Shown piece after piece: positions 253 through 54,938 of a DNA stretch of 64,000 nt. A program made the position numbers and the translations under genes. Below the pieces are notes generated by a model. That model was given only the letters and a program-made list of their open reading frames with translations. It did no database searches and was not told where the DNA came from. The stretch lies in sequence record MN850585.1; one strand, 5' to 3'. The stretch is from Escherichia phage skuden. Every line of letters starts with the position of its first letter. Within the stretch, counting starts at the first letter, position 1.

Positions 253-453
253 TCATAATTTCACCTTAGTTGGTAATGCACTGAATGCTATAGCTAACCC
301 TAAAAATGGTTTGAAGCATGACCATAAATCCATCTGACCATGATATGCGAAACTCCATTGCGGGTCTGAAAAACCCCATACCATAACACTAACTCCAAAA
401 AAGAAGATTAGAATGTGAAGTATGTATATCAACGTTTTTGATATTTTAAACAT
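253..453 (-). CDS. hypothetical small membrane protein
   Basis: ORF track 66 aa, hydrophobic segments; no recognisable motif. Confidence 0.35.
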   Translation of the reverse strand: MFKISKTLIYILHILIFFFGVSVMVWGFSDPQWSFAYHGQMDLWSCFKPFLGLAIAFSALPTKVKL

Positions 454-607
454 TTTAACTTATCTCTCAACTCACAATAAGAGAGTCCTAAAAAGAACCC
501 CAGTAAGACAGAACCTATGAACAGGCCAATGATGCTCTCTGCCATATCTAACATCCAATAAAAAAGGTGATGTAAGCCTATCAAGACTCACACCACCTTG
601 TCAAGTT

Positions 608-1480
608 TTACATAGAAACCCTGTCACGAATCTCAGCAATTTTTGCATCATTCATTCGGGATTCACCTTTAATCTTAGTCCATCCCAGATATCCGCACAC
701 TCTGTTAATCACAGAGATGTCATGTGAATGGCAAACCTCACATTCTTCAACATCAGCCTTTGGTCTGTTACCACAATGTTCACAGATTGCTAAGTCAAAG
801 TTAAGTCCCTGATAGAAACCTTTCAACATCCCTCTTGTGATACAACTTTTAAGTGCTGTTAAGTTTTCTGGGTTAGCTACCCTTACATACTGGATTCTAC
901 CACCTCTACAGATATGGAAGAATGGTTCTTCTAAGTCCTGCTTCTCAAATGGTGAGATGTCTGCTGCAACATTCATATGGAAACTGTTTGTAAAATATTC
1001 CTTATCAGAAACACCTTTGATAACACCAAACATTTCTCTGAACTGTTTTAGCTGAGTTCCACAAAGTGATTCTGCTGGAGTACCATAGACGGCATATAAG
1101 AAGCCATCTTCATTTTTAAACTCTTCAGTTTTCATGTTGATGTATGCCAGAACATCATATGCAAAACTATAACTTCCAACTTCATGAAGTCGTTTACCTT
1201 CAGCAAGAACAGATAGCTCATCAAGCGCAGTAACCCCAAAAGAAGCTGTGAAGGACTTCACAATATCCCAACCAACCCTGTCAGTAGGCTTCTTAGTTCC
1301 TTTGTACAGACCACCTTGTGTAAATGCAAGAGGGTTAGAACTTGCTGGCATATTGGCAATCATTTCATAGCGTTTCTTGTGGAAACTACGAATCATCTCT
1401 AGGTACTTATCAAGCTCTTTCCAGAAATCTAAACCATTCTCTTTAGAATACTGGTAAATCATTGGTAAGTTCAAAGACAC
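608..1480 (-). CDS. nrdD: anaerobic ribonucleoside-triphosphate reductase, C-terminal exon (true exon start likely near 1500)
   Basis: C-terminal glycyl-radical region RVCGYLG and Cys cluster CEHCG...CEVCHS; frame stays open a few codons upstream of the first Met. Confidence 0.85.
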   Translation of the reverse strand: MSLNLPMIYQYSKENGLDFWKELDKYLEMIRSFHKKRYEMIANMPASSNPLAFTQGGLYKGTKKPTDRVGWDIVKSFTASFGVTALDELSVLAEGKRLHEVGSYSFAYDVLAYINMKTEEFKNEDGFLYAVYGTPAESLCGTQLKQFREMFGVIKGVSDKEYFTNSFHMNVAADISPFEKQDLEEPFFHICRGGRIQYVRVANPENLTALKSCITRGMLKGFYQGLNFDLAICEHCGNRPKADVEECEVCHSHDISVINRVCGYLGWTKIKGESRMNDAKIAEIRDRVSM

Positions 1481-1499
1481 AGCACCAATGTTAGCACGA

Positions 1500-2294
1500 C
1501 CTACATAAAACTCTTCACCATCTTCGTTATGGTATGGTGATAAAAATGCTCTACACTTGTTGTTCAGGCAAGTTCGCTACGCTTACCCCGCTTTATCCAA
1601 GCTGCTTACTGTCACCAGTAAGTCCAGACTATATCTTCTACTTATTTCTAAGTAGCGTACCATTTCGAGTCGCTTGACCCTACACCGCTACATTCATCAC
1701 GGTTAGTCGTTCGGCATTTAGATGTATTCAAATTCATGTTCAAAGTTATTATGCTCTTTTACACCCTTCAATATTGAAGAGATAGTCTTGCGATTATATC
1801 CGAGTATATTGGATAACTCTCGTATTGACTTGGCAGCAATAACTTCTTTTGTCACTTTGTGTGTAGCCTTCACAGCATATGAACGCTTACAAAACTTGTA
1901 GCAACCGTTCTCATAACCTTCTTTAACATTCTCAGAATGAGTTCCCCATTCTAAGTTAGAAGCATGGTTGTTCAGTTTGTTATCATCTTTGTGTTTTACA
2001 ATTGGAAGATTGTTTGGGTTAGGTACATATTTCTCAGCAACTAACCTATGGACATACATGTCACGATTCTTCTTACCGTAAAACTTTACTTTCATATACC
2101 CAGTGTTGGATTTCCACTGTGTAAGCTCTACACCATTTTCTCTAAAGACTCTTCCGTCTTCAGTAACATGATAATTTGGCATGTAATACTCCTATGTTAT
2201 ATAGTTTCTTACATCTTACATCATTTAGCACAGGATTGTCTACATCTGTAGAGTTTCCCTGTTTAGGCACGTTTTAGATGAGCTATAGAGCCTG
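1500..2294 (-). mobile_element. group I intron interrupting nrdD, carrying an HNH homing endonuclease ORF (boundaries approximate)
   Basis: nrdD split into two ORFs about 800 nt apart; minus strand has AAGATATAGTCT near 1627-1638 (11/12 to group I S element as recalled), an R-like GTCAAGCGACTCGAAA near 1660-1680, and P/Q-like CAGGGAAA / AATCCTGTGC near 2215-2260. Confidence 0.6.
1718..2182 (-). CDS. HNH homing endonuclease (intron-encoded)
   Basis: HNH motif region HKDDNKLNNHASNLEWGTHSEN; C-terminal helix-turn-helix-like tail IRELSNILGYNRKTISSIL. Confidence 0.75.
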   Translation of the reverse strand: MPNYHVTEDGRVFRENGVELTQWKSNTGYMKVKFYGKKNRDMYVHRLVAEKYVPNPNNLPIVKHKDDNKLNNHASNLEWGTHSENVKEGYENGCYKFCKRSYAVKATHKVTKEVIAAKSIRELSNILGYNRKTISSILKGVKEHNNFEHEFEYI

Positions 2295-3494
2295 TTAACC
2301 CATCGGGGAAATTACCTTGCCAGAACGCTCAAAAGCCTCTGCTACAGCACCATGACCAGATACACTTAAGAAGTCTGGGTACATAGCTTTAGAGCAACAC
2401 TCAATAGCTTTACTGTACAGGTGACCTTGACAGATGTTCTCATTATGTCTCTTCTGGTCATAAATATAAACCAGTTTAGGGAATACAACAGGTTTCTTGC
2501 TCTTACCTTGTCCATTCATACGAACATCTAGGAGAGTACTTGCAATCATGTATTGCAGTCGGTTATCTTCATTAGACATATCTGAGTCAAGCAACCCGAA
2601 TGTCAAAGTTGTGAATGCAAAATCACCACGGCTACAAGGTACAGTGTTTAGCTTCATTTCTAGTGACTGGAAGCCTTGAGTTAATTCAATCTGTAGCTGC
2701 TCCATGACATAGTTATGGTAATATTCTTTAGGAATACCATAAGATGCAGCTTTCTCAGCATGATAACGTAGAGACTTCTTAGCATACGGTACAAGTACCT
2801 TATCAATCTCTGCTAAAGTAAATCCACCAAATTGCTGTGCAGTTGCTGAAAGAACTACATCACCAATAACCTGCAAGGCTGACAGCACAGACTTCGGTTC
2901 ACAGTATTCGATGCCAGACATTTCAAAGCCACCTTTCAGTACTTTACCAATGTCAAACAGGCAACAGTTTATACCACCAAAAATCAGGTCTCTTAAATCA
3001 TGGATGTAGATAAACCCTTTTTCAATGGCTTCAAGTTCCTCTGGTGTTAAATGGTACTGTTTAAAGATTTCTTTAGTCAGATAACCACGAATAATTGAAC
3101 CTTTTGTAGAAATTAAACTACTGTCAAAGTTAGCATTCTCTCTGTCACCTAAGAAGAGTGTGTCTCTGGTCTTTTGATAAAGTTCATCCCAATTTTGAGC
3201 AACTTCTTTACGGTAATTTCTATATGTTGAGTAAGACTCATAAATCTCGTGATTGACTTCTGCCAAAGCACCTTCAACAATACTGTGAATATCATTTACT
3301 GAAATGAGTAAATTATTCTGCTTAGTGGATTTCACCAGAATCCTCATAAATGCTGACTCAAGAGCTTGGGTAACATCTGGTGGAAGTTCTTTATACCCAA
3401 CCCTATTAGCTGACTTTGTGACTGCTGCTAAAACTTTTTTGATATCAGGTTCTTCGAGTGAGCCATTCTTTTTAATAATCTGTACTTTGTTCAT
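2295..3494 (-). CDS. nrdD: anaerobic ribonucleoside-triphosphate reductase, N-terminal exon (ORF ends in intron-encoded stop)
   Basis: 399 aa; PKLVYIYD...AMYPDFLSV...SPMG resembles T4 NrdD around the intron region as recalled. Confidence 0.85.
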   Translation of the reverse strand: MNKVQIIKKNGSLEEPDIKKVLAAVTKSANRVGYKELPPDVTQALESAFMRILVKSTKQNNLLISVNDIHSIVEGALAEVNHEIYESYSTYRNYRKEVAQNWDELYQKTRDTLFLGDRENANFDSSLISTKGSIIRGYLTKEIFKQYHLTPEELEAIEKGFIYIHDLRDLIFGGINCCLFDIGKVLKGGFEMSGIEYCEPKSVLSALQVIGDVVLSATAQQFGGFTLAEIDKVLVPYAKKSLRYHAEKAASYGIPKEYYHNYVMEQLQIELTQGFQSLEMKLNTVPCSRGDFAFTTLTFGLLDSDMSNEDNRLQYMIASTLLDVRMNGQGKSKKPVVFPKLVYIYDQKRHNENICQGHLYSKAIECCSKAMYPDFLSVSGHGAVAEAFERSGKVISPMG

Positions 3495-3511
3495 TATTTC
3501 CCCTTTACATG

Positions 3512-3534
3512 CTAAAAAGGTCTCCGAAGAGACC
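3512..3534 (-). terminator. rho-independent terminator, UUCG tetraloop hairpin on minus-strand RNA
   Basis: Plus strand aaaaaGGTCTCcgaaGAGACC; minus RNA reads GGUCUC-UUCG-GAGACC then U-run; sits between the 68-aa ORF and the nrdD start. Confidence 0.5.
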
Positions 3535-3542
3535 CTTTCATT

Positions 3543-3749
3543 TTAAATCTTTTTAGAAAACTTCGAAAAGAGTTCTCTTAGTTTTTCAGTGATACCTAAC
3601 TGTATCTCTAATATTTCGAAGATAACCCATAGTAACATGGCTCCAAACAATGAACCTTGTTCAAAGTCAGTAAATAGGTTAACAATAAGCATACCAATCA
3701 CAATAGCTGGTGCATCAACAACCAAACCTTCCCAAATGCGTTTAAGCAT
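3543..3749 (-). CDS. hypothetical small membrane protein
   Basis: 68 aa with a hydrophobic stretch AIVIGMLIVNLF. Confidence 0.4.
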   Translation of the reverse strand: MLKRIWEGLVVDAPAIVIGMLIVNLFTDFEQGSLFGAMLLWVIFEILEIQLGITEKLRELFSKFSKKI

Positions 3750-3984
3750 TATTCACCTCTGCCATAAAATTCTGTAGCGTCCCAACAGGTTTTAGGTTTT
3801 GTCCATCAGTTTTCATGATGAATGGCATCTGACGAACTGGCATCTGTGCAATATCCATCAGGTCTGATAGTTCATAGTCCTGCCCTAACATTCTCACAAC
3901 ATGGTCAATACCACGAACTTTTGCGAAATTCTTTGCAGTCTCACACTGAGGGCATCCAGTTTTGGAGTAAATTACATAAGTCAT
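3742..3984 (-). CDS. glutaredoxin/NrdH-like redoxin
   Basis: 80 aa with CPQC active-site motif (YSKTGCPQCETAK), immediately beside nrdB/nrdA. Confidence 0.7.
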   Translation of the reverse strand: MTYVIYSKTGCPQCETAKNFAKVRGIDHVVRMLGQDYELSDLMDIAQMPVRQMPFIMKTDGQNLKPVGTLQNFMAEVNNA

Positions 3985-54854: not shown

Positions 54855-54861
54855 ATTAATT

Positions 54862-54938
54862 TGGTCTCTGTTGGAGGACTTGAACCTCCGGCCTTACCGC
54901 CCCAAACGGAACGCTCTACCAAGCTGAGCTAAACAGAG
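54862..54938 (-). tRNA. tRNA-Pro (anticodon UGG)
   Basis: Acceptor CTCTGTT/AACAGAG, D-arm GCTC/GAGC, anticodon loop TTTGGGG, T-arm GGAGGTTCAAGTCCTCC. Confidence 0.7.

Follow-up and report, generated by a model that had tools for sequence, protein, structure and literature searches.

The nrdD gene of Escherichia phage skuden, which encodes the anaerobic ribonucleotide reductase, is located on the minus strand between positions 3494 and 608 of the 64,000 nucleotide (nt) stretch analyzed here (MN850585.1; referred to as the window). It is divided into two parts, and a gene for an HNH-type endonuclease is found between them. The region at positions 400–3800 has 97.2% identity to Escherichia phage JohannRWettstein and matches about 290 related records; the phage is Felix O1-like (Felixounavirus). 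Two open reading frames (ORFs) on the minus strand represent nrdD. ORF 3494..2295 (399 amino acids, aa) has an ATP-cone domain (PF03477) and matches positions 1–250 of the NRDD model (PF13597), and ORF 1480..608 (290 aa) matches NRDD positions 283–560 and the glycine-radical domain when analyzed by Pfam. The gap between the two is 814 nt. An initial annotation, made from the sequence alone, had placed the two ORFs about 800 nt apart and had proposed that they are separated by a group I intron that carries the endonuclease gene.

Sequences retrieved from the phage collection with positions 1300–2560 of the window were either full length or shorter by 426 nt or by 742 nt. A representative of each of these three classes was aligned, with phages dune and FO1a providing the intron-less alleles. 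These read ...CCGATGGGT^TGTAGAGC... (the insertion point is marked ^ throughout), and the window has exactly 742 extra nt at this point, positions 2297..1556. The true intervening sequence is 742 nt and not 814 nt because the exon 2 reading frame is open upstream to position 1555. The alignment permits two placements of the insert that are one base apart, but only one puts a G at the insert end; this placement was chosen since group I introns require a terminal G. The splice sites, which the initial annotation could not fix by eye, can thus be assigned from the intact alleles to 2298/2297 and 1556/1555, and the RNA reads CCGAUGGGU^UAACAG...AACAAG^UGUAGAGC. Exon 1 (3494..2298) consists of 399 codons for the ATP-cone and N-terminal part of NrdD and ends in ...ISPMG, the last codon being GGU. 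Exon 2 (1555..608) consists of 315 codons plus the stop codon, starts with UGU for Cys400 and carries the glycyl-radical motif RVCGYLG. The spliced coding sequence (CDS) is 2145 nt and encodes 714 aa, which is equal in length to the uninterrupted CDSs of intron-less alleles. When the same junction is applied to JohannRWettstein and to Salmonella phage Meda, the GenBank proteins QXV81758.1 and AXY86276.1 are reproduced residue for residue.

The intron interrupts the gene in phase 0, with Gly399 on one side and Cys400 on the other, within the conserved motif SPMG^CR(A/S)FL. Cys400 aligns with a residue of T4 NrdD that is Cys290 by our own count; the numbering agrees with the glycyl-radical Gly580 in RRTCGYLG. 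In class III reductases the Cys at this position is the finger-loop cysteine that initiates catalysis. This cysteine has been described in general terms (PMC4493059). The exon 1 frame meets a UAA at the first triplet of the intron. There is no ATG, GTG or TTG in exon 2 between the upstream in-frame stop and Cys400; the first start is a GTG at position 1480, 25 codons past Cys400. Unspliced RNA can therefore give only the 399-aa fragment and no working enzyme, because exon 1 runs into UAA and exon 2 is without a start before the Cys codon.

The group I intron of subgroup IA type (2297..1556, minus strand, 742 nt) starts with UAACAG, ends in ...AACAAG with the 3'-terminal G, and is identical to that of JohannRWettstein at 742/742 nt. 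A scan of the whole window with Rfam at gathering thresholds shows only tRNAs and no intron. The gathering threshold of the group I intron model (RF00028, Intron_gpI) is 50 bits. With permissive filters, the window copy shows a match to the P7–P9 part of 38.9 bits (E = 4e-8 locally and 2e-6 for the whole window) and a second match to P4–P6 of 17.5 bits, and there is no other Intron_gpI match in the 64 kb. The copy scores below the threshold and is matched in two parts because of the 465-nt ORF in P6; a split match of this kind is expected when a loop of the intron contains a large ORF. A natural ORF-less allele, REP8 (316 nt), has a core that differs from that of the window at only a few positions. 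It reaches 55.4 bits, with E = 5e-13. In the Intron_gpI check suggested in the initial annotation, the window copy itself is thus below the threshold and its natural ORF-less form above it. The minimum-free-energy fold of REP8 recovers P3, P4, P5, P6, P8 and P9 as well as a P10-type pairing.

Helices P1–P10 were assigned by eye and tested on six sequences from four phage lineages: the ORF-trimmed window intron, REP8, RPN213, phita32 (rV5-like), Vibrio phage F97 and the T4 nrdD intron. The 5' splice-site region (2304..2277) contains the P1 exon strand GAUGGGU (2304..2298) and the P1 strand of the internal guide sequence, GCUCAUC (2283..2277). P1 is paired at 7/7 positions in all six sequences, with one distal pair changed on both sides, and the splice-site G·U pair (U2298 with G2283) is invariant in 6/6. 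The P10 strand of the guide sequence, GCUCUAUA (2291..2284), directly precedes GCUCAUC and is complementary over 8 base pairs (bp) to UGUAGAGC, the exon 2 strand of P10 (1555..1548). In F97 both strands of P10 differ and again form 8 bp (GAUUGGCA/UGCCGAUC); P10 is 5 bp in phita32, and in a lineage-by-lineage check of the helices it could not be identified in the T4 nrdD intron. The 5' half of the ribozyme core (2270..2217; Rfam model positions 60–139) comprises P3 GUGCC, P4 ACAGGG, the P5 hairpin UCUACA/UGUAGA, P4' UCCUGU, P6 GC and the 5' strand of P6a. The 3' half (1726..1605) comprises P6a'/P6', J6/7, P7 GACUA, P7.1 ACCG/CGGU, P7.2 GGGUC/GACUC, P3' GGUAC and a P8 hairpin with a GAAA loop; towards its end, J8/7 and P7' (AAGAUAUAGUCU, 1637..1626) are followed by a P9 hairpin with a GUGA loop. 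The peripheral 3' elements (1602..1556) are P9.1 GCUU/AAGC, P9.2 GGUAAG/CUUGCC with compensatory changes in 4/6 pairs, and the 3' tail CUGAACAACAAG. The P/Q-like elements AAACAGGGAAAC and AAUCCUGUGC noticed in the initial annotation are located at 2265..2228, the R-like element GCCGAACGACUAACC at about 1715..1701 and the S-like element AAGATATAGTCT at 1637..1626.

MAFFT misaligned the variable hairpins P5, P6a, P7.2, P8, P9.1 and P10, so the formal pair count was restricted to 8 helices with 42 pairs in gap-free columns and the remaining helices were checked lineage by lineage. In the 42 pairs, 98% of cells are paired, compared with 31–43% after displacement of the partners by one to three columns. 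Two-sided changes are present in 14 of the 42, and the observed values were reached by none of 500 shuffles. P3, P4, P7.1, P9 and P9.2 covary; P7 is invariant and is uninformative in this respect. All 14 helices are complementary in every lineage, with the exception of P10 in T4, and the P3/P7 pseudoknot is present in the conserved P3–P9 core. P7.1 and P7.2 (1703..1667) are complementary in all four lineages, P7.1 being compensated in T4 (TCCC/GGGA), and on this basis the intron belongs to subgroup IA, as do the T4 introns. The T4 td/nrdB/sunY type is called IA2, and the window intron is probably IA2 rather than IA1, as judged from its likeness to T4 sunY. The Rfam match, fold, covariation and intron-less alleles support the original proposal that the insert is a group I intron in nrdD with an HNH homing endonuclease gene.

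The endonuclease gene (2182..1718, minus strand) is the 154-aa HNH ORF that had been recognized between the exons in the initial annotation. It encodes an I-HmuI-like HNH protein and lies in the P6 loop. Its terminal codons, UAC AUC UAA, double as the 3' strand of P6a, and an AGGAG Shine-Dalgarno sequence is present at 2193..2189. The protein matches Pfam HNH_3 with 40.2 bits (cut-off 24.8) and PHROG 59 (phrog_59, 8.6e-44). It aligns over its full length with I-HmuI (PDB 1U3E, E = 1.1e-9, residues 3–145 against 12–163), with H64, N76 and N85 at the positions of I-HmuI H75, N87 and N96. The ORF is intact in 10/10 full-length alleles, and the ratio of nonsynonymous to synonymous change (dN/dS) is 0.056 at a dS of 0.35; the endonuclease protein is therefore under selection. 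Variable sites make up 4–5% of the ribozyme halves versus 15% of the ORF. In the td intron of T4, a hairpin hides the Shine-Dalgarno sequence and AUG of the endonuclease gene. A hairpin over the corresponding sequences is strong in the rV5-like homolog (z = -4.1) and in the Vibrio homolog (z = -2.8).

The exact 154-aa sequence has also been deposited under assemblies of Staphylococcus hyicus, E. coli and Shigella; these copies presumably represent phage DNA in the bacterial assemblies. Some members of the protein's cluster are truncated to 123–125 aa.

Allele states at the insertion site were compared in 23 Felixounavirus sequences, the sample used also for the association tests below. Ten are empty, ten have the full intron and three have an intron with the ORF deleted. 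The empty FO1a allele agrees with a report that Felix O1 is without introns (PMC3185647). In the wider phage collection, approximately 94 of approximately 288 related records have the intron and about 59 of these also have the ORF. The ORF-less introns stem from two different deletions, with lengths of 316 nt (REP8 and one other sequence, L017) and 292 nt (RPN213). The REP8 type is the same intron with an in-frame ORF deletion and is 426 nt shorter than the full form. As the two deletions differ, the endonuclease gene has been lost at least twice, with the ribozyme kept in each case. The 292-nt form is found at positions 301–592 of the sequence from Salmonella phage vB_SAg-RPN213 (L025). A separate feature is present in Salmonella phage BPS17W1 (L030), where positions 3401–3967 contain an extra free-standing homing endonuclease gene directly downstream of nrdD; such a gene accounts for about 574 nt of extra length in some Salmonella Felixounaviruses.

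All variable sites up to 300 nt from the insertion, in both exons, were examined for a link to the presence of the intron. An association at p < 1e-3, with a minimum of 1.5e-6, was obtained for ten sites that lie between +3 and +54 from the insertion site (1553..1502, minus strand). None of about 93 variable sites in the 300 nt of exon 1 shows an association, nor does any of about 38 in exon 2 from +78 to +300. The changes in this haplotype, which is strictly linked to the intron, are mostly synonymous, with the addition of H408 versus L/F and D411 versus N. One intron-bearing sequence, L023 (IMGVR_UViG_3300045988_024527), has markers of the empty-site type from +24 on, apparently the result of a shorter conversion tract or of later recombination. 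The haplotype is likely a co-conversion tract, the endonuclease target region, or both. Its confinement to one side is compatible with a cut in exon 2 and subsequent co-conversion on that side only, and it could also constitute a target-site variant that protects the carrier.

The interpretation that we favor, at about 90% probability, is that a mobile group I intron of the IA subgroup, with kinship to the T4 sunY/nrdD intron, has entered nrdD in phase 0 directly before the finger-loop Cys codon. In the pre-mRNA, the guide sequence would form P1 with the 7 nt at the end of exon 1 and P10 with the 8 nt at the start of exon 2. Attack on the 5' splice site would come from an external guanosine in the P7 binding site, the freed 3'-OH of exon 1 would then attack past the terminal G, and ligation of the exons would produce the mRNA for the intact 714-aa NrdD. 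The I-HmuI-like HNH protein most likely nicks or cuts the intron-less nrdD of co-infecting phages in the first ~55 nt of exon 2, and repair from the intron-bearing genome would copy the intron together with a stretch of exon 2 (homing with asymmetric co-conversion). A mobile (homing) intron is recognized by presence/absence polymorphism at one site with linked exon markers, and both are present at this locus.

Several observations weigh against this interpretation. Splicing, like endonuclease activity and the cleavage position, is inferred here from DNA sequences. The window copy itself is under the Rfam gathering threshold (38.9 versus 50 bits). Exon dN/dS is about twice as high in intron-bearing as in intron-less alleles. 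The residue aligned with I-HmuI D74, which we take to be a metal ligand, is Lys63; it is Lys in phita32 and Cys in F97 and is not conserved. Catalytic competence and metal binding of the window protein are thus not certain, although D66 or D67 might substitute for the acidic ligand. The hairpin that would hide the Shine-Dalgarno sequence and AUG is not significant in the window (z = -1.1), and it says nothing on regulation of the gene. The exon 2 haplotype, in turn, could derive partly from shared ancestry of the intron-bearing lineages rather than from repeated co-conversion; contrary to this, no such intron-linked structure is found in exon 1 or distal exon 2.

An extension of the mobile intron interpretation is that the element, rather than being primarily a selfish homing intron, serves as a competition device between co-infecting Felixounaviruses. 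The enzyme would target the first ~55 nt of exon 2 (the finger loop) in rivals, and the +3 to +54 haplotype would be the self-immunity allele that travels with the intron, and the effect would resemble the marker exclusion of SPO1/SP82. An intron of this lineage, once at the T4-type site, would have transferred to the present one, where the exon context AUG(A/G)GU is also found, and would later have dispersed over three phage groups. This scenario is put forward tentatively and is, on balance, doubtful.

Among the alternatives to a homing intron, the one that survives best accepts splicing but holds that the HNH protein no longer homes and acts as a maturase, a regulator or a weapon against competitors, so that the exon 2 haplotype is a relic of one ancestral invasion. 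The Lys at the D74 position would be consistent with this, and the strong purifying selection might just as well stem from an advantage to the host phage. A role of intron endonucleases in phage-phage competition has been documented (PMC11620839), and I-HmuI and I-HmuII cut intron-bearing and intron-less DNA alike (PMC3428280). However, the intron is present or absent across intermixed backgrounds, and markers in exon 1 and distal exon 2 are common to both classes, which fits repeated transfer better than a single invasion. The shorter tract in L023 is what would be expected of independent conversion or recombination, and H64, N76 and N85 are conserved. Loss of homing is considered unlikely.

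Far less probable is that nrdD is a pseudogene disrupted by a free-standing HNH cassette, with no splicing and with the phage relying on the aerobic NrdAB. The score of the window copy under the gathering threshold and the annotation of two separate nrdD CDSs in many records would agree with such a pseudogene. Phage viability says nothing on splicing, as T4 nrdD is dispensable in aerobic laboratory growth. Against it are the full group I core with covariation and with P1 and P10 matched to the exons, the retention of the ribozyme in ORF-less derivatives, and the lower variability of the ribozyme halves than of the ORF. Removal of the insert restores the frame exactly at SPMG^CR, and exons 1 and 2 are intact in all 10–11 intron-bearing alleles with dN/dS of 0.05–0.06 at dS of 0.26–0.37. 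It is hardly credible that the 399-aa and about 290-aa polypeptides form an active reductase without splicing: both ORFs are conserved and a functional split phage reductase without an intron has a precedent in Aeromonas phage Aeh1 (NrdA/mobE, as cited in PMC3653736), but the finger-loop Cys and the CRAFLSPY... segment would be missing from both pieces, because the first exon 2 start is the GTG at 1480, and conservation of a ribozyme would serve no purpose. The insert is not an intein either, since UAA is the first intron triplet and the HNH ORF has a Shine-Dalgarno sequence and a start codon of its own.

The element is already known at the annotation level and is of a thoroughly studied kind; GenBank records MZ501086 and MH586731 join the CDS at the same junction. 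The BASEL paper set intron boundaries by comparative genomics (PMC8594841), and its record carries the same intron. For other Felix O1-like phages, a split nrdD interrupted by a homing endonuclease has been described, and the word intron was not used (PMC3728262, PMC4837284). A literature search gave only such mentions of split nrdD and boundaries, and no paper on the fold, insertion site or population structure of the nrdD intron. The present analysis contributes detail: the precise fold of the intron, its location ahead of the codon for the Cys that aligns with T4 C290, the finding that the endonuclease gene was lost twice independently, the sharp limits of the exon 2 tract, and the relationship to the sunY intron, from which it nonetheless differs in site, ORF position and nuclease family. 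A practical consequence concerns annotation: nrdD should be represented as one joined CDS, 3494..2298 + 1555..608, of 714 aa, where many Felixounavirus records list two 'NrdD-like' fragments instead. The stages that a homing element passes through can be seen at this locus within a single genus: empty and invaded alleles, two independent endonuclease losses in which the ribozyme is kept, and a one-sided, intron-linked exon tract with sharp limits. It also illustrates the preference of such introns for the most highly conserved catalytic codons, in this case before the finger-loop Cys. Current understanding is not changed by the nrdD intron finding.

Other features of the window are listed for completeness. 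A hairpin that resembles an intrinsic terminator, with 16 pairs followed by a T run, is found just past the nrdD stop (564..599, minus strand); the corresponding stretch is annotated as a terminator in phage Meda. A scan for sigma-70-like promoters shows 7 sites versus 10.5 in shuffled sequence, and we do not propose an internal promoter. An array of 23 tRNA genes is present at 50111–54938 on the minus strand. It includes a long-armed tRNA (52956–53043) that barely passes the tRNA model at 33.2 bits and whose match to tRNA-Sec is below threshold (39 versus 47 bits).

The closest known counterparts are in JohannRWettstein (Bas63, MZ501086) and Salmonella phage Meda (MH586731), whose records give nrdD as a join of two pieces that enclose the endonuclease gene. 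The annotated junction is the one derived here and nothing substantive differs, although the flanking genome is about 3% different.

More distant relatives of the intron are present at the same nrdD site, ..(S/Y)MG^CRS.., in the rV5-like phages phita32 and 'Campylobacter phage A138' and in Vibrio phage F97. The site reads ...TSMG^CRSFLSKY in the rV5-like phages and ...SYMG^CRSLLSPW in F97. These introns have a homologous core and a homologous HNH ORF in the P6 loop, which encodes a protein of 168–169 aa. The cores are ~72–76% identical over the stretches aligned by blastn, roughly 40–50% of the intron, and there are compensatory changes in many helices. The rV5-like phages and F97 also appear to carry further insertions in nrdD. 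In F97 (L006), a second HNH ORF is located further upstream in nrdD (positions 327–1256), and the 3' part of the gene is annotated as two abutting CDSs, 3303/3304; the two observations suggest more insertions or a frameshift. In phita32 (L027, positions 65–946), the part of nrdD before the same-site intron spans just 84 aa, with another ORF, annotated as 'hypothetical protein', ahead of it; this may represent a second intron or endonuclease insertion in the gene. Two records marked UNVERIFIED, MG065664.1 and MG065684.1 ('Campylobacter phage A132/A138'), contain nrdD sequence of Felixounavirus type or Vequintavirinae type and are probably mislabelled or mixed assemblies. Outside nrdD, the terL gene of Aeromonas phage 4L372D (L028, positions 1420–1802) is annotated in two pieces with ~380 nt between them that have 74% identity to the intron core over 120 nt; this stretch is probably an ORF-less group I intron.

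With respect to the endonuclease, I-HmuI from the DNA polymerase intron of Bacillus phage SPO1, I-HmuII, I-BasI and I-TwoI are likewise small intron-encoded HNH enzymes. The I-HmuI group and the window protein have in common an N-terminal HNH motif and a C-terminal part that is helix-turn-helix-like, and the intron-linked exon 2 tract matches the I-HmuI type of nicking in exon 2 (PMC3428280). I-HmuI differs from the window protein in host gene and phage group, in its low sequence identity and in the D74 that is replaced by Lys.

Of the three T4 introns, that in nrdD (sunY) is the closest to the window intron, with 78% identity over 111 nt (P7–P9) and 82% over 62 nt (P1–P5). The host gene is nrdD in both. 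T4 nrdD is at 43.5–46.4 kb and its intron is 1033 nt. The two introns are collinear down to P9.2 and the 3' tail, and the architecture common to both consists of P7.1/P7.2, P9.1, P9.2 and the 3' tail CUGAACA...G. The 5' splice contexts are nearly identical, AUGAGU^UAAC...GCUCAU in T4 and AUGGGU^UAAC...GCUCAU in the window. Short stretches that are nearly identical in T4-like genomes lie within the nrdD introns of those genomes and reflect the conserved J6/7-P7-P7.1 core. The T4 Cys290 site itself is empty, yet its 5' context CCGAUGGGU^UGC is identical to the occupied Felixounavirus site; in principle it would be a compatible target for the window intron.

As the initial annotation had cautioned, the endonuclease type and insertion site differ from those of T4. 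The T4 intron is in phase 1 within codon 180, which aligns with aa 279/280 of the window NrdD, whereas the window intron is ~120 codons downstream, before Cys400 (window aa 399^400 corresponds to T4 289^290). The T4 intron encodes I-TevII, a GIY-YIG enzyme (PMC2988022), whereas the window protein is of the HNH family; the T4 ORF is past P9 (intron positions 236–1012 of 1033), whereas that of the window is in the P6 loop. In insertion site, nuclease family and ORF position, the window intron is distinct from the T4 nrdD intron/I-TevII element. The comparison illustrates that the ribozyme and the endonuclease gene evolve independently, because a sunY-like core is found here in the same gene with another nuclease, in another loop and at another site.

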